Assembly (NCBI GenBank): GCA_030829765.1
Contig: JAUROO010000094.1
Location: 1 to 52,267 of the forward strand
Length of the DNA: 52,267 nucleotides
Direction of reading: 5' to 3'
Source: Miltoncostaeales bacterium
GTDB taxonomy: Bacteria > Actinomycetota > Thermoleophilia > Miltoncostaeales > Miltoncostaeaceae
Shown here: positions 46,371-52,267 of the stretch, in pieces
How the letters are laid out: every line of letters starts with the position of its first letter
How positions within the stretch are numbered: position 1 is the stretch's first letter
Translations under genes and position numbers: made by a program
The notes under the pieces: model-generated
What the model was told of the DNA's origin: nothing
The model's database searches: none
Seen by the model: the letters and a program-made list of their open reading frames with translations, nothing else

Positions 46371-46400
46371 TTGATTACTCGCATAAGGAATGCTTAGATT
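46371..46400 (+). promoter_or_regulatory. candidate promoter giving a leaderless ABC-operon transcript
   Basis: It lies in the only AT-rich patch of this region: TTGATT (46371-76), an 18-nt spacer, then TAGATT (46395-400). That leaves 7 nt to the in-frame ATG at 46408. Confidence 0.3.
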
Positions 46401-47244
46401 GAATGCGATGCGTGAACGACCCGGATCCCGCCGCGGTGGCCACGACGCGGATGCGCCCGCCATCCGGGTGGATGGTGCGTGCAAGACCTATGAGGGCGGT
46501 GACCGTCCGGCGCTCCTGCCCACCTCCTTCACCGTGGAGCGTGGGGAATTCGTGAGCCTCGTGGGGCCGAGCGGGTGCGGCAAGTCGACACTTCTCGGCA
46601 TGATCGCCGGGCTGCTGCGCCCCGATGCCGGGTTCGTGGAGGCCCTGGGCCGCCCCGTCGAGGGGCCGGGGGAGGGGCGCGCCATGGTGTTCCAGGACGC
46701 CGCGCTGTTCCCGTGGCTCACCGTGCTGGGCAACGTGGAGTATGGGCTGCGCGCGCATGGCGTGGCCCGGGCCGAGCGGCGCGAGCGCGCCCTCGAGGCG
46801 GTGCGGCTGGTGCACCTGGACCACGTGGTGGACCGGCACCCGCATGAGCTCTCGGGCGGCATGCGCCAGCGCGCCTCCATCGCGCGTGCGCTGGTGATGC
46901 GCCCGGAGATCCTGCTGATGGATGAGCCCTTCAGCGCCCTGGACGCCCAGACGCGCACGATCCTGTCGGACGAGCTGCAGCGGATCTGGCTGGAGACGCG
47001 GCCCACCGTGGTGTTCGTGACGCACAACCTCATCGAGGCGGCCTTCCTGTCGGACACGGTGCACCTGCTCTCGTCGGGGCCCGGTCGGATCGTGCGCACC
47101 TACGACATCGACATCCCGCGGCCGCGGGACGAGGCCGACCCGGCCCTGCTCGATCTGCGCCACGACATGCTCGAGCGCCTGCGCGCCGAGGTGGACGACG
47201 CCGCCGAGCGGCGCGCCCAGGTAGCCGAGGTCGTCGCCCTGTGA
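46390..47244 (+). CDS. ABC transporter ATP-binding protein (NitT/TauT family)
   Basis: GPSGCGKSTLL, LSGGMRQRASIARAL, LLMDEPFSALD. The true start may be the ATG at 46408. Confidence 0.9.
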   Translation: MLRLNAMRERPGSRRGGHDADAPAIRVDGACKTYEGGDRPALLPTSFTVERGEFVSLVGPSGCGKSTLLGMIAGLLRPDAGFVEALGRPVEGPGEGRAMVFQDAALFPWLTVLGNVEYGLRAHGVARAERRERALEAVRLVHLDHVVDRHPHELSGGMRQRASIARALVMRPEILLMDEPFSALDAQTRTILSDELQRIWLETRPTVVFVTHNLIEAAFLSDTVHLLSSGPGRIVRTYDIDIPRPRDEADPALLDLRHDMLERLRAEVDDAAERRAQVAEVVAL

Positions 47245-48080
47245 GCACCGCGGCAGGGGGTGCGGGCGCCGCGGGTGGCCGCGCGGTCCGGGCCTCGCGG
47301 GGAGCCCGGGCGGCGGCGATCGGGTTCCTGCGCCGCAGTTGGTTCGTGCTGCTCATCCTGCTGGTGTGGTGGCTGGTCACTGCCGCCGGGTGGGTGGACC
47401 CCTACAAGCTGCCCTCCCCCGGCGATGTACTCGGCACCCTCGGCACGCTGCTCACCGAGCGCGCGCTGCTGGTGGATCTCGGGGCAACGCTCCTCCGGCT
47501 GGTGGAGGGGTGGGCGATCGGCGTCGTCGCGGGGGTGCTGCTGGGCATCCTCACGGGTGGGTCACGGGTGCTGGAGGACGGCATCCGTCCGGTGATCGCC
47601 GGCCTGCAGGCCGTGCCGACCATCGCCTTCCTGCCGCTCGCCATCCTCTGGTTCGGCTTCAACGGCACCGCCGTGCTCGCCATCACCGCCTTCGGCACGT
47701 TCAAGCCCATGGCGCTCGCCACCTACGGCGCGATGCACCAGATATCGCCCACGCTGCTGATGGCGGGGCGCGCGCTGGGCGCGCGCGGACTGTTCCTGCA
47801 GCGCACCCTGGTGTTCCCGGCCATCGTCCCGAGCCTCGTGACGGGTCTGAAGATGGGGTGGTCGTTCGCGTGGCGGGCGCTGATGGCGGCCGAGATCGTG
47901 GTGACAGGCGCAGCCGGGCTGGGTGGCGTGCTGGAACTGGGCCGCGAGATCGGGGCCATCGACGTGGTGATGGCGGTGATCCTCGTGATCCTGGTGGTGG
48001 GCATCGCCACCGAGCAGCTGGTGTTCGCGCGCCTCGAGCGCTGGGTGAACCGGCGGTGGGGCCTGGTGGGTGCGCGCTAG
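47241..48080 (+). CDS. ABC transporter permease (NitT/TauT family)
   Basis: Six hydrophobic segments. The EAA-like loop region is LMAGRALGARGLFLQRTLVFPAIVP. GTGA overlap with the ATPase gene. Confidence 0.85.
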   Translation: MSTAAGGAGAAGGRAVRASRGARAAAIGFLRRSWFVLLILLVWWLVTAAGWVDPYKLPSPGDVLGTLGTLLTERALLVDLGATLLRLVEGWAIGVVAGVLLGILTGGSRVLEDGIRPVIAGLQAVPTIAFLPLAILWFGFNGTAVLAITAFGTFKPMALATYGAMHQISPTLLMAGRALGARGLFLQRTLVFPAIVPSLVTGLKMGWSFAWRALMAAEIVVTGAAGLGGVLELGREIGAIDVVMAVILVILVVGIATEQLVFARLERWVNRRWGLVGAR

Positions 48081-49041
48081 GTTCACCGCTGCCATGGCTG
48101 CCGTGGCGGTCCTCGCCACCGCGGTCGCCGGATGCGGGGGCGAGGCGCCCGACGCGGTGCGCGTGGGCTTGATGCCCACCATCACCCACGGCCCGGCCCT
48201 GATCGCGTTGGAGGACGAGTTCACCCCGGGGCTCGCCGGCCTTCCCGTGGACGAGCAGGTCTTCGCCAGCGGGCCCGAGGAGGTCAGCGCGCTCCTCAGC
48301 GGATCGCTGGATGCCGCGTACATCGGCCCCGGTCCCTACGTGCTTGCGGAGGGCAGGGCCCCCGGCCGCCTGCGCCTGCTCGCGGGCGTCGTGAACGGCG
48401 GGCAGGCGTTCGTGGCCCGGCCGGGCACCGGCATCGTGGATGCCCGCGACCTCGCCGGGCGGCGCGTGGCGGTGCCCGCGCACGGCAACACGCAGGACCT
48501 GACCTTGCGCCTGCTGCTCGACCGGGCCGGACTCCGGGCGTCCGATCAGGGCGGCGACGTGGAGGTGGTGCCGGTGAAGAACGCAGCGCTGGTGGAGGCA
48601 TTCCGACAGGGGGTCGTGGACGCCGCGCTCGCGCCCGCGCCCTTCGGCGAACTGCTCACGGCCCGCGGCCTGGCAGCGCCGGTACCCGCCATGGACCGGA
48701 CGATCGCGGAATGGGAGATCCCGGCGACAGTGCTGGTGGCGACCGAGGAGTTCGCGCGGGCGAACCCCGCGGCCACGCTTGCACTGGTCCGCGCGAGCGC
48801 CCGGGCGGTGGCCCGGGCCGATGCCGCGCCGCGCGCGGTGGCGCGGGCGTTCAACGACCTGCTGGATGAATCGACCGGAACGCGCCTGGATGGCGGGGTG
48901 CTGCTCAAGGCGCTGGACGGCACCCACGCCTCCACGGCCGTCGCACGCGGCGCCATGGCGCGGATGGTGCGGGCAGCCGAGGGCGCGGGGTATGCCGGGG
49001 GCCCCGTGGCGCCCGCGGCGCTGGTTCCGCGAGCGGGGTGA
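48070..49041 (+). CDS. ABC transporter substrate-binding lipoprotein (SsuA/NMT1-like)
   Basis: Lipobox VAGC|GG. RVGLMPTITHGPALIA and later blocks are typical of aliphatic sulfonate/nitrate/HMP-type binding proteins. The substrate is unknown. Confidence 0.75.
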   Translation: MRARFTAAMAAVAVLATAVAGCGGEAPDAVRVGLMPTITHGPALIALEDEFTPGLAGLPVDEQVFASGPEEVSALLSGSLDAAYIGPGPYVLAEGRAPGRLRLLAGVVNGGQAFVARPGTGIVDARDLAGRRVAVPAHGNTQDLTLRLLLDRAGLRASDQGGDVEVVPVKNAALVEAFRQGVVDAALAPAPFGELLTARGLAAPVPAMDRTIAEWEIPATVLVATEEFARANPAATLALVRASARAVARADAAPRAVARAFNDLLDESTGTRLDGGVLLKALDGTHASTAVARGAMARMVRAAEGAGYAGGPVAPAALVPRAG

Positions 49042-49114
49042 CGCGGCGCGGGAGGAGTCGGCACGCGCGCGTGGAAACGACAGGCGCACCGGCACACTTC
49101 CTGGAGGGCATGAG

Positions 49115-49963
49115 ATGACGCGTCAGGCGCGCGTTCTGGCGATGGCGAACCAAAAGGGCGGGGTCGCGAAGACGACCTCGTCGCTGAGCCTTGCCGCCGC
49201 CCTCCACGAGAAGGGGCAGCGGGTGCTGGTGGTCGACCTCGACCCGCAGAGCAACCTCTCGATGAGCCAGGGCATCGACGTCGAGAACCTCCGCGATGGC
49301 ATGTACGACGTCCTCGTGAAGTCGCTGCCCATTGCGGACATCGTGCAGGTGCGCGAGATCGACATCGCGCCCGCCGGCATCGAACTCGCGAGCGCGGAGC
49401 TGTCGCTGTCGTCAATGATCGGCCGCGAGCGCGCACTTCAGCGCGCGCTCGAGCCGGTGCGCTCACAGTACGACTACATCATCCTCGACACCCCGCCGTC
49501 GCTCGGGCTGCTCACCATCAACGCGATGGTGGCCGCACAGGGAGTGATCGTCCCCGTGCAGTGCGAGTACCTGTCGCTGCGCGGGCTCGCCCAACTCACC
49601 CACACGCTCGAGCAGGTGCGCGAACACCTGAACCCCGAGGTGCACATCTTCGGGATCCTTCCGACCATGTACGACGGCCGCACCATGCACTGCCGCGAGG
49701 CCGTGGACGTGCTGATGGACAACTTCGGGGACACCGTCTTCCGCACGCGCGTGGGCAAGACCGTGCGATTCGCCGAGGCCCCCGTGCAGGGTCGCAGCAT
49801 CCTCTCGTTTGACCCCAGTGGGCAGGCGGCGCGGTGGTACCGGCAGATGGCGCGCGAGGTCCTGGAGCGCGATGGGAAGTGGACCGATGAGCTCGAGCGC
49901 ATGCGGCGTCCGGTGCGCGAGGTGAGGCCGCAGTCCGGGCCAGGCCTTAGACTGGCCTCGTGA
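49115..49963 (+). CDS. ParA/Soj-family (deviant Walker A) ATPase with no adjacent parB
   Basis: VLAMANQKGGVAKTT, VLVVDLDPQSNLS, YIILDTPPSLGLLT, FGILPTMYDGRT. GGAGGG lies 6 nt upstream of the ATG. Confidence 0.9.
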   Translation: MTRQARVLAMANQKGGVAKTTSSLSLAAALHEKGQRVLVVDLDPQSNLSMSQGIDVENLRDGMYDVLVKSLPIADIVQVREIDIAPAGIELASAELSLSSMIGRERALQRALEPVRSQYDYIILDTPPSLGLLTINAMVAAQGVIVPVQCEYLSLRGLAQLTHTLEQVREHLNPEVHIFGILPTMYDGRTMHCREAVDVLMDNFGDTVFRTRVGKTVRFAEAPVQGRSILSFDPSGQAARWYRQMAREVLERDGKWTDELERMRRPVREVRPQSGPGLRLAS

Positions 49964-51384
49964 AGAAGCAGTCCATGCGCGAGGGGCCACTCGCGGATCT
50001 CTTCAGGAGCACTACCCCCGGTGAGGGCGGGGCGCAGGGCCTCCAGTCCGAGAGCCCCGCCGAGACGCGCCAGGAGGTGCCGCTGCGCGCCGAGGGCCAT
50101 GCGGTTGTCCGCGTGGTGGGCGTGGGCGGCGGCGGGTGCAACGCCGTCGATCGCATGATCGAGGCCGGCGTGCACGGCGTTGAGTTCATCGCGATCAACA
50201 CCGATCGCCAGGCGCTGGACAGCAGCCGGGCAGATGTGGTGATCCCCGTGGGCGCCGAGGTCACCCGCGGGCTGGGCACCGGCGGAGATCCCGCACTGGG
50301 GGAGATGGCCTTCCGCGAGAGCGAGGAGCACCTGCGCCGCGTCCTGCGCGGTAGCGACCTGGTGTTCATCGCCGCCGGCGAGGGGGGCGGCACCGGTACC
50401 GGTGGCGCGCCGATCGTCGCGAAGGTGGCGCGCGAACTGGGTGCGCTTGCGGTGGCGGTGGTCACGAGGCCGTTCGGCTTCGAGGGCAACAAGCGGTCCG
50501 GCACGGCCGACCAGGGCATCCAGCACCTGGGCGAGGCCGCCGACACCGTCATCGTGATCCCCAACGATCGTCTGATGAGCGTGCTGGAGCGCGGTACCAG
50601 CGTGGTGCAGGCGTTCGCCGTGGCCGACGACCTGCTGCGGCAGGGTGTCCAGGGGATCAGCGACCTGATCACGCTGCCCGGGCTGATCAACGTGGACTTC
50701 GCCGACGTGCGCACCATCCTGAAGGATGCAGGCACGGCGCTCCTGGGCATCGGGTATGCGAGCGGTGGCAGCCGTGCCACCGACGCCGCGACCGCCGCGA
50801 TCTCCTCGGCACTGCTCGAGACGCCGATCGATGGTGCCAGGGGCATCCTGCTGGGCATCACCGGGGGCCCCAGCATGTCGCTGATCGAGGTCACCGAGGC
50901 CGCACAGGTGGTGGCGGACGCCGCCGACCCGGACGCGAACATCATCTTCGGCGCCACCATCGATGACGACTTGGACGATCAGGTGTGGGTGACGGTGATT
51001 GCGGCCGGCCTGTCGGGCGTGCCCGCGAAGTCGTCCGGCTCCGTAACGCGTACCCCCGCGACCCGCGTGGAGCGCGGCCGCCGTGCCCGTCCGGCGCAGG
51101 CTGCGCCTGCCGCGATCGGGGGCGGCAGTGACATCGCCGAGCCGCCCGAGGCCCCGGACCTCTCCGCCGACGTCCCGCCGCCCGTTGCCCCGAAGGCACC
51201 GCCCGAGGCGCCACCCGCGCTGGCCGCGGCACCCGACCCGCCCGCCGACCCGTCGGCGGCGCGCGAGCTTCCCGCCCCGCCCGAGGGCTCGCCCCCGGGG
51301 CCGGCGGATGCCGAATCCACCCGCCTGTTCTCCGTGGGCGACGACCGGGAGCCATCCGACCCGGACGGCGGCCCGGCCGCCTAG
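49960..51384 (+). CDS. ftsZ: cell-division GTPase FtsZ with a long N-terminal extension and a Pro-rich C-terminal linker
   Basis: VVGVGGGGCNAVDRM, GLGTGGDPALG, AAGEGGGTGTGGAPIVA, VIPNDRL, INVDFADVRT. The GTG at 49960 overlaps the ParA-like stop (GTGA). Alternative starts are the ATG at 49975 or the GTG at 50077. Confidence 0.9.
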   Translation: MKKQSMREGPLADLFRSTTPGEGGAQGLQSESPAETRQEVPLRAEGHAVVRVVGVGGGGCNAVDRMIEAGVHGVEFIAINTDRQALDSSRADVVIPVGAEVTRGLGTGGDPALGEMAFRESEEHLRRVLRGSDLVFIAAGEGGGTGTGGAPIVAKVARELGALAVAVVTRPFGFEGNKRSGTADQGIQHLGEAADTVIVIPNDRLMSVLERGTSVVQAFAVADDLLRQGVQGISDLITLPGLINVDFADVRTILKDAGTALLGIGYASGGSRATDAATAAISSALLETPIDGARGILLGITGGPSMSLIEVTEAAQVVADAADPDANIIFGATIDDDLDDQVWVTVIAAGLSGVPAKSSGSVTRTPATRVERGRRARPAQAAPAAIGGGSDIAEPPEAPDLSADVPPPVAPKAPPEAPPALAAAPDPPADPSAARELPAPPEGSPPGPADAESTRLFSVGDDREPSDPDGGPAA

Positions 51385-51397
51385 GCCGCACCGCCCG

Positions 51398-52267
51398 GTG
51401 ATCACGGGCGCGGTCGCCGCAGGGCATCCCCTGTCGGCACGCGCGGGGGCGATGGCGCTCGCCGCGGGCGGGACGGCAACCGATGCCGTGATCGCGGGCG
51501 CACTCACCTCTGCGGTGGCGGAGGCGGTGCTCACGGGCCCCGGCGCCGGTGGCTTCCTCATGGTCCGGCCGCCCGGCGGGCCGGCGACCATCCTCGACTT
51601 CTTCGTGGCCGTGCCCGGACTGGGTCCCGCGGGCCATCGGCTCGACCCCGCCGACCTGCACGCGTTCACGGTGCCCTTCGGCACCGCGGAGCAGGTATTC
51701 CATATCGGCCCCGCATCGGTCGCCGTGCCCGGGATGCTCGCGGGCCTGGATGAAGCCGCGCGGAGGTTCGGCCGCCTGCCGCTGTCCGATCTGGTGGCAC
51801 CCGCGGTGGCGCTGGCACGTGCAGGCGTGGCGGTGGGCGAGGAGGCCGCCTACCTGCACCGGATCCTCGCCGAGATGCTGGGACACACCCCGGCGAGCGC
51901 GGCGCAGTTCCTGCCGGCGGGCCGCGTCGCGGACGTGGGCGAGGCGCTGGTCTTCGAGGATCTGGGGGACACGCTCGAAGCCTTTGGCGCGCAGGGTGCA
52001 CGGTGCCTCTATGACGGCCCCGTGGGTGATCGCATCACGGCGTACCTCGCCGCCACCGGCGGGTTGGTGACGGCAGACGACCTGCGCGCCTACCGGGTGG
52101 TGGAGCGCACGCCCGTGCAGGTGACATTCCGGAACACGACCGTGCTGACCAACCCGCCGCCGTCCAGTGGCGGCGTGCTGATCGCCGCGGCGCTCGAGCA
52201 CCTGCAGCGGCTTCCCGTGGGCGGCGGGGACCCCGGGTTCTACGCGCGCATGGCGGCCGCCCAGGCC
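51398..52267 (+). CDS. gamma-glutamyltransferase-family protein; C-terminus lies beyond the window end
   Basis: My own translation from the GTG at 51398 gives VITGAVAAGHPLSARAGAMALAAGGTATDAVIAGALTSAVAEAVLTGPGAGGFLMV ... TNPPPSSGGVLIAAALE. It is open to the window end and absent from the track because it has no stop. Confidence 0.75.
   Translation, partial: MITGAVAAGHPLSARAGAMALAAGGTATDAVIAGALTSAVAEAVLTGPGAGGFLMVRPPGGPATILDFFVAVPGLGPAGHRLDPADLHAFTVPFGTAEQVFHIGPASVAVPGMLAGLDEAARRFGRLPLSDLVAPAVALARAGVAVGEEAAYLHRILAEMLGHTPASAAQFLPAGRVADVGEALVFEDLGDTLEAFGAQGARCLYDGPVGDRITAYLAATGGLVTADDLRAYRVVERTPVQVTFRNTTVLTNPPPSSGGVLIAAALEHLQRLPVGGGDPGFYARMAAAQA

Follow-up and report, generated by a model that had tools for sequence, protein, structure and literature searches.

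In a 52,267-nucleotide (nt) stretch of Miltoncostaeales DNA (contig JAUROO010000094.1 of assembly GCA_030829765.1; hereafter the window), a gene for a ParA/Soj-type ATPase runs directly into ftsZ, the stop codon of the first overlapping the start codon of the second, and a gamma-glutamyltransferase (GGT) gene, ggt, follows. The same arrangement recurs in a clade of Thermoleophilia, whose FtsZ proteins begin with a conserved peptide ahead of a variable linker. We propose, tentatively and with slightly less than even confidence, that this FtsZ may be a direct partner or cargo of nucleoid-bound ParA, docking on the ATPase by its N-terminus.

An earlier note, made from the letters of the window, had drawn attention to an orphan ParA-like ATPase ending in a GTGA overlap with an ftsZ start outside any dcw context, with an ABC importer upstream and a GGT gene 13 nt downstream. 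The open reading frame (ORF) coordinates bear out the overlap, which, as read from the sequence, is an instance of translational coupling. Pfam matches and coordinates likewise agree on the neighbors: a three-gene ABC importer (ATPase, permease, and NMT1-type binding protein; 46390–49041) upstream, and downstream a GGT with a G_glu_transpept match of 188.8 bits and a TIGR00066 match. The ftsZ gene thus does not lie at the end of a dcw cluster, beside mur genes, ftsW, and ftsQ. No dcw, sepF, divIVA, or parB gene was found within ~10 kb on either side of the pair, and it is for this span that the term orphan holds; past the window end, the flank survey used contigs with ParA, FtsZ, and GGT stretches identical to those of the window.

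Conservation of the pair was assessed on loci obtained by protein look-ups and by a scan of species-representative genomes, the latter a small sample. At least 21 distinct loci have parA directly upstream of ftsZ, labeled Miltoncostaeaceae, Solirubrobacteraceae, Thermoleophilaceae, Solirubrobacterales, Thermoleophilia, or 'uncultured Actinomycetes'. The adjacency whose conservation the earlier note had left to be checked therefore persists across order-level divergence in the lineage. The feature it described is real; it is not peculiar to the window, being a trait of a whole clade of soil and marine Thermoleophilia. A scripted check of 20 loci showed the parA stop codon overlapping an in-frame ftsZ start in every one, by 4 to 29 nt. 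In the window's group the shared letters are GTGA or ATGA, while in most Solirubrobacterales-type loci the ftsZ ATG lies 8–14 nt before the parA stop (26 nt in L017), with AGGAGG ahead of the start; in the 21st locus (L091, on a second large contig) the called genes overlap by 14 nt. A ggt gene lies 3' of ftsZ in 18 of the 20, often with few bases between. The pairing has been kept while FtsZ core identity fell to about 50–65% and ParA identity to 57–69%, and the flanking genes differ. One record, L013 (CAMCUD010000008.1), is titled 'MAG: Bifidobacterium breve' and contains a Solirubrobacterales-type parA-ftsZ-ggt locus; it is probably mislabeled or contaminated.

The first core strand of the window FtsZ begins at residue 48–49, in agreement with the roughly 48 preceding residues counted in the earlier note. 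Among the best 120 homologs, which carry the labels Miltoncostaeaceae, Miltoncostaea, or Thermoleophilia, every protein with a complete N-terminus starts with [KR]xSMREGPL[AS][DE]LF[RK][SN]T and continues into a variable linker. The motif [KR]xSMREGPLxxLF[RK]xT is present in the FtsZ of all 20 ParA-linked loci and of L091, but is absent from all 62 FtsZ loci that lack an upstream ParA (Streptomyces, Bacillus and relatives, Chloroflexi, Rubrobacter, Coriobacteriia, and others). In an alignment of 26 sequences, M6, R7, E8, G9, P10, L11, L14, F15, and T18 are as invariant as the GTPase residues; S5 is also among the ten invariant peptide residues of the alignments, and a basic residue always stands three positions before the motif Met. 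The net charge over residues 1–18 of the window protein is +2. AlphaFold2, run on the 26-sequence alignment, assigned a predicted local distance difference test (pLDDT) score below 50 to FtsZ residues 1–46 in an overall poor model (mean pLDDT 56.7), and the extension is accordingly predicted to be disordered. One FtsZ of the clade, P0100 (666 residues), has an unrelated 260-residue N-terminal part without the motif, which is probably a chimeric assembly or a gene-calling artifact.

These data bear on whether the extension is protein at all. A GTG at position 50077 could in principle be the true start of ftsZ, leaving the upstream conservation to an untranslated segment or to an RNA or translation-coupling signal. 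The invariant residues, however, are encoded by two to four different codons each across the 20 loci (three or four for Ser, Gly, Pro, Leu, and Thr), and the Ser preceding the motif Met appears as AGC, AGT, or TCC, drawing on both the AGY and TCN families. Residues that stay fixed while their codons vary synonymously indicate selection acting on the protein. The extension is therefore translated, from a start 5' of the motif Met, which in the window is GTG 49960 and not GTG 50077. The motif also stays in frame across over 100 homologs whose linkers differ; 35 of the 39 extension codons end in G or C, the ground on which the earlier note had judged that the extension looked coding; and the G+C content at third codon positions (GC3) is 0.89 in the ftsZ frame versus 0.74 and 0.54 in the other two. 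An untranslated extension, which the earlier note had named as a possible refutation, is on this evidence highly improbable.

A 30-column profile of the peptide was compared with 1.84 billion representative proteins, yielding 1078 matches at E ≤ 0.001. Of the best 150 of these, 62 were too short to classify; the classifiable ones carry either the FtsZ core or the extension motifs of Solirubrobacterales FtsZ, and no other protein family bearing the peptide was recognizable among the 150. From these comparisons the motif seems specific to FtsZ. The Solirubrobacterales extension is longer than that of the window, at 107–166 residues from the motif Met to the first core glycine motif, and contains two further motifs, P.P.ERL[RK]..F and [YWF]GR[ED] (L010–L018, L025, L028, L034, and L074). 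A motif of the latter type also occurs in some relatives of the window's group, as PPAWGRE.

The remainder of the protein is that of an FtsZ. It scores 397.6 bits against the TIGR00065 equivalog model (cutoff 295.2) and has the Pfam domains Tubulin (residues 50–209) and FtsZ_C (residues 258–351); the GGGTGTG nucleotide-binding loop and the T7 loop are invariant across the ParA-linked clade. At its C-terminus the canonical anchor-binding peptide D-[IV]-P-x-F-[LI]-[RK] was not found, and the window protein ends ...STRLFSVGDDREPSDPDGGPAA. In place of that peptide, the C-terminal region in the window's group (51013–51381 in the window) has EPPEAPDLSA, TRLFSV or PRVFDVE motifs, and SDPDGG.AA. The Solirubrobacterales members of the ParA-linked clade keep a canonical D-[IV]-P-E-F-[IL] C-terminus.

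Turning to the ATPase, the window ParA matches Pfam AAA_31 at 204 bits, with additional CbiA and partial MipZ and ParA matches, and the deviant Walker A motif KGGVAKT with its signature lysine, which the earlier note had described as intact, lies at residues 14–20 (encoded at 49154–49174). All NCBIfam equivalog models score below cutoff. Among them, NF041546 (ParA_partition) reaches 114.7 bits versus a cutoff of 180, which places the protein outside the chromosomal ParA family as defined by that model. The nearest solved structures are ParA/Soj proteins: ParA of Myxococcus xanthus (8ray; E = 2.7e-59, 40.7% identity) and 4pfs (E = 5.7e-59, 45.5% identity), a ParA-like protein deposited as 'cobyrinic acid a,c-diamide synthase' that has KGGVAKTT and RFAEA in common with the window protein. 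The 4pfs protein is probably from Mycobacterium smegmatis; its chain of 273 residues does not match the 297 given for MSMEG_3743. The window protein is not a MinD, because TIGR01968 scores 48.2 bits versus a cutoff of 212.9 and a conserved C-terminal amphipathic helix for membrane targeting is lacking; the C-terminal tails of the ParA orthologs are short and mutually unrelated. Nor is it a MipZ, because the PF09140 match is partial (residues 7–165, profile positions 2–146 of 262) and reaches only 44 bits. A gene of the PldP/Rv1708 type would be expected beside scpA/scpB, whereas the window parA adjoins ftsZ; pldP itself presumably lies beside scpA and not ftsZ. No ParB-family gene was found in the Pfam-annotated flanks of the ParA-linked loci, and no ParB-type GLGRGLxALI motif in loci L001–L086 or the window. 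Solirubrobacteraceae-type loci encode one or two more ParA/ArsA-like ATPases (295–383 residues) in genes divergent from parA-ftsZ (L090:8021–9157 and L091:6810–8848, both on the minus strand); these lie near T2SSE, PilM, and PilO genes and may be TadZ/CpaE- or Ssd-like.

Two functional surfaces of ParA can be followed into the FtsZ-linked proteins. In M. xanthus ParA, mutagenesis and nuclear magnetic resonance identified V116, L150, L152, L155, L187, and L192 as the residues that bind the ParB N-terminal helix (PMC12462528). In 20 FtsZ-linked ParA proteins these align with L/I96, L130, L132, I/V135, Q/M167, and L172, and five of the six hydrophobic positions are kept. The DNA-binding residue R238 of M. 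xanthus ParA aligns with R218 of the window protein and is Arg or Lys in all 20 orthologs.

ParA/MinD ATPases are usually encoded beside their cargo, and their partners bind through a positively charged, disordered N-terminus (bioRxiv 10.1101/2022.06.09.495121). The window FtsZ fits this rule: its gene adjoins that of the ATPase, and its N-terminal peptide is positively charged and predicted to be disordered. The corresponding motif of M. xanthus ParB comprises L11, R13, L15, L18, and I19, in which an Arg precedes hydrophobic residues spaced i, i+3, and i+4 along a single helix face (PMC12462528), to which M6, R7, L11, L14, and F15 of the FtsZ peptide could correspond. It is because of the published partner rules and this ParB-like pattern that we favor direct docking.

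In the proposed mechanism, parA-ftsZ(-ggt) would form a single translationally coupled unit in which FtsZ serves as the ATPase's own partner protein. ParA, dimeric and bound to ATP, would sit on the nucleoid, as the conserved DNA-binding Arg/Lys suggests, and the FtsZ N-terminal peptide would dock on this nucleoid-bound dimer, stimulating ATP hydrolysis and so limiting the lifetime of the contact. An FtsZ filament displaying multiple peptides would then be a multivalent cargo and could be placed relative to the nucleoid in the manner of plasmids, carboxysomes, and the PomXYZ cluster; with the opposite sign, the filament would instead be kept out of ParA-rich regions. We infer the ParA–peptide contact, the ATPase stimulation, and the sign of any effect on the Z ring from the correspondences above. 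A broader version is possible, though we hold it to be doubtful: that the Z ring of Thermoleophilia positions itself, FtsZ filaments bearing ParB-like N-terminal peptides acting as direct ParA cargo with no adaptor such as MinC, PomX/PomY, or ParB, and that ftsZ left the dcw cluster for co-translation with its positioning ATPase.

Several observations weigh against direct docking. Because a neighbor-joining tree unites the ParA-linked FtsZ proteins in one clade, the co-occurrence of parA and motif reflects one retained origin and not a set of independent associations. The pocket position equivalent to L187 is Gln or Met in the FtsZ-linked ParA proteins. The earlier note had seen in the peptide a weak likeness to the N-terminal peptide of ParB; the pattern stands, in that a disordered basic N-terminus presents an Arg and hydrophobic residues at i, i+3, and i+4, but the spacing from Arg to L-x-x-L-hydrophobic is two residues longer than in ParB (E-G-P for G), and Glu, Pro, and Asp/Glu occur in the peptide but not in the ParB motif. 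The ParA pocket could equally serve the organism's own ParB, and mycobacterial Rv1708 has been reported to bind ParB (PMC10482377). Finally, a direct-docking model gives no role to ggt, the conserved third gene, which encodes a periplasmic-type enzyme.

The retained pocket and the ParB binding reported for Rv1708 also favor a different division of labor, in which ParA would regulate the FtsZ core in the manner of MipZ, its cycle driven by the chromosomal ParB, and the N-terminal peptide would recruit a further component of the division machinery, for example a bundling protein or an anchor to the membrane. The loss of the canonical C-terminal anchor-binding peptide from the window-lineage FtsZ makes a new anchor-docking site plausible, and P-L-x-x-L-F-R loosely recalls the C-terminal D-I-P-x-F-L-R. 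In Solirubrobacterales members, however, the N-terminal peptide and the canonical D-[IV]-P-E-F-[IL] C-terminus occur together, so the former is not a replacement for the latter. A candidate third protein conserved beside the pair throughout the clade was also not found: GGT is of the periplasmic type, and an ORF of ~100 residues is confined to one subgroup. We regard this explanation as unlikely.

A single origin of the ParA-linked FtsZ would also suit an inherited accident of gene order, with no functional link between ParA and FtsZ and a peptide that serves FtsZ itself, for instance in the control of polymerization as in Anabaena FtsZ. The FtsZ of filamentous cyanobacteria does have a conserved N-terminal peptide that affects polymerization and needs no ParA (PMC6175996). 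Against this, the stop/start overlap has been kept in every locus despite the divergence of the FtsZ core and the differing flanks, and AlphaFold2 gave no docking of the peptide on the FtsZ core, albeit in a poor model. An accident of gene order is thus, to our minds, very unlikely.

A further alternative concerns the place of this FtsZ in the cell: the ParA-linked gene might be a second, accessory paralog with a specialized role, ordinary division being left to a dcw-cluster FtsZ elsewhere in the same genome. Such a gene exists in the lineage. Other metagenome-assembled genomes (MAGs) labeled Solirubrobacterales have the order murE-murF-mraY-murD-ftsW-murG-murC-murB-ftsQ-ftsZ, followed by gcvT-gcvH-gcvP, and the FtsZ encoded there has a short N-terminus and a DIDVPxFL C-terminus. 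In the neighbor-joining tree this dcw-type FtsZ groups with FtsZ of Rubrobacter and Coriobacteriia, the position expected of a Thermoleophilia gene passed down vertically, and the ParA-linked type forms a separate clade; moreover, the European Nucleotide Archive metagenome sample ERZ25039555 contains both ftsZ types, on different contigs. The scan of species-representative genomes contained no genome with both, but is too small a sample to bear on the matter. The other observations point to different genomes. Among the best 120 matches per list, on which these comparisons rest, the longest contigs of the dcw-type list and of the two ParA-linked lists share no size, and four dcw-type contigs of 1.9–2.8 Mb stand against 16 ParA-linked contigs above 1 Mb, including the complete 3.03 Mb chromosome OY969935.1. 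All seven named dcw-type matches are labeled to order only ('Solirubrobacterales bacterium'), as against labels to family in five of the seven named Solirubrobacterales-type ParA-linked matches, a difference in label depth that points to different genomes. The ParA-linked protein also scores above the FtsZ equivalog cutoff, and its Solirubrobacterales versions retain the C-terminal peptide that binds anchors. This indirect evidence favors residence of the two ftsZ types in different genomes, and an accessory paralog appears rather improbable.

Two further features of the dcw-type loci were apparent. In L024, L027, L041, L068, L079, and L087–L089 the glycine-cleavage genes gcvT-gcvH-gcvP directly follow ftsZ, at the place of pgeF-sepF-divIVA in Rubrobacter (L059), and in L088 a class-I tRNA synthetase gene precedes scpA, with no parA-like gene intervening. 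Gene picking by GC3 often took antisense frames in this DNA of 72% G+C and was used for rough context only.

The features of the window locus are collected in Table 1. The window has a G+C content of 70–75%, and a promoter and terminator scan of 48800–52267 gave no match. Between a response regulator gene and parA, the segment 45039–49041 encodes a TIG-domain protein and the ABC importer, as in the close relative L002. In L001 and L006, which are more distantly related, an M48 peptidase, a HisKA_3 kinase, and a GerE-type regulator adjoin parA, with at most a small cupin gene between; because this regulator block reaches parA without the importer, the importer block looks like an insertion. At the other end, an ORF of ~100 residues overlaps the ggt stop (L002:13843–14145, just beyond the window end; L001:12930–13235; L006:13218–13532). 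Members of the Miltoncostaeaceae-like group share this ORF (RTSLTD...LWGF.VQV...KTCFVGRV...ILFA), for which Pfam returned nothing at E ≤ 1; its place in Solirubrobacterales is taken by an unrelated ORF of 159 residues, lipoprotein-like by eye.

Table 1. Sequence features of the parA-ftsZ-ggt locus in the window
Feature	Position	Strand	Remarks
Shine-Dalgarno-like GGAGGG	49103..49108	+	6 nt 5' of the parA start codon; read from sequence
parA, ParA/Soj-type deviant Walker A ATPase, 282 aa (amino acids)	49115..49963	+	ATG 49115 to TGA 49961-49963
GTGA overlap, ftsZ GTG start and parA TGA stop	49960..49963	+	Read from sequence
ftsZ, 474 aa	49960..51384	+	GTG 49960 to TAG 51382-51384
Conserved N-terminal peptide KKQSMREGPLADLFRST, FtsZ residues 2-18	49963..50013	+	Proposed ParA-docking motif
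Variable low-complexity linker, FtsZ residues 19-47	50014..50100	+	Length and sequence differ among homologs
FtsZ GTPase core and C-terminal domain, residues 48-350	50101..51009	+	
GGGTGTG nucleotide-binding loop	50383-50403	+	FtsZ residues 142-148
T7 loop NVDFADV (N-x-D-x-x-D)	50689-50709	+	FtsZ residues 244-250
Conserved motif EPPEAPDLSADVPPP in FtsZ C-terminal linker	51139..51183	+	Recurs in Miltoncostaeaceae-like homologs
C-terminal motifs STRLFSV ... SDPDGGPAA	51316..51381	+	Occupy the place of the canonical D-[IV]-P-x-F-L-[RK] peptide
GGT gene, 5' part	51398..52267	+	GTG start, 13 nt after the ftsZ stop; runs off the window

The choice of the division site in actinobacteria is an open question; to our knowledge, these bacteria lack Min and Noc. 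The sole conserved candidate for site selection is the orphan ParA-like ATPase represented by PldP/Rv1708, which is without a known partner. Here a gene order conserved at no fewer than 21 loci points to a specific contact, between ParA and the first 18 residues of FtsZ, and by profile search the conservation reaches about a thousand protein clusters. If the docking model is correct, it would be the most direct link known from a ParA to the cytoskeleton, the activating peptide being part of FtsZ. The model would further show that ftsZ can leave the dcw cluster, among the most conserved of bacterial gene arrangements, and would suggest FtsZ or a peptide-bearing divisome protein as the partner of PldP/Rv1708 in other actinobacteria. 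A full-text literature search returned no description of a parA-coupled ftsZ and no paper on ftsZ in Thermoleophilia. Cultured isolates of Miltoncostaea, Solirubrobacter, and Conexibacter exist and are possible test organisms.

Among known systems, the ParB N-terminal peptide offers the closest likeness to the FtsZ peptide: in both, a short motif with an Arg ahead of hydrophobic residues at i, i+3, and i+4 lies in an unstructured, positively charged extreme N-terminus, and the partner gene adjoins parA. The carrier here is FtsZ rather than a CTP-dependent DNA clamp, and E-G-P replaces a Gly-rich context, with acidic residues inside the block and an Arg-to-Leu distance two residues longer. We take the likeness as a common pattern only and do not claim homology. 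MipZ of Caulobacter is similar in being a ParA-family ATPase tied to Z-ring placement, with DNA or nucleoid binding in its cycle; the window ParA differs in matching Pfam MipZ only weakly and partially (44 bits versus 204 for AAA_31). Moreover, mipZ is not known to be coupled to ftsZ, the MipZ gradient is ParB-dependent, and no such peptide is known from Caulobacter FtsZ. MinD of the MinCDE system belongs to the same ATPase superfamily, and MinE activates it through a short peptide, but the window ParA falls far below the MinD cutoff (48 versus 212.9 bits), shows no conserved amphipathic tail, and has no adjacent minC or minE. In the PomXYZ system of Myxococcus, nucleoid-bound PomZ positions the Z ring and a PomX N-terminal peptide activates the ATPase (PMC7993993 and PMC13170346). 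There, separate scaffolds carry the activating peptide and then recruit FtsZ, whereas here the peptide is on FtsZ, with no pomX- or pomY-like gene nearby.

The actinobacterial second ParA-like ATPases (PldP, Rv1708/MSMEG_3743, and 'ParA2') resemble the window ParA in lineage and influence division-site placement, as that protein would in the docking model. A second parA-like gene has been said to be universal in actinobacteria (PMC4255298), and MSMEG_3743 is numbered next to scpA (MSMEG_3742) (PMC10482377). PldP of Corynebacterium glutamicum (Cg1610) affects division-site placement; neither ParB nor liposomes stimulate it, and its partner 'has yet to be identified' (bioRxiv 10.1101/2025.07.02.662783); the protein is located at septa and over the nucleoid and is slightly stimulated by DNA. 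Organisms with PldP/Rv1708 differ in that their FtsZ has a short N-terminus, as in the Streptomyces loci. The FtsZ of heterocyst-forming cyanobacteria likewise has a conserved N-terminal extension that is peculiar to its lineage and required for normal function (PMC6175996), in a sequence that we assume to be unrelated and with parA coupling assumed to be absent. MipZ, PomXYZ, MinCDE, and PldP/Rv1708 are the nearest functional analogues of the ParA–FtsZ pair, and in none of them is the ATPase gene coupled to ftsZ or a peptide of the activating type carried on FtsZ.

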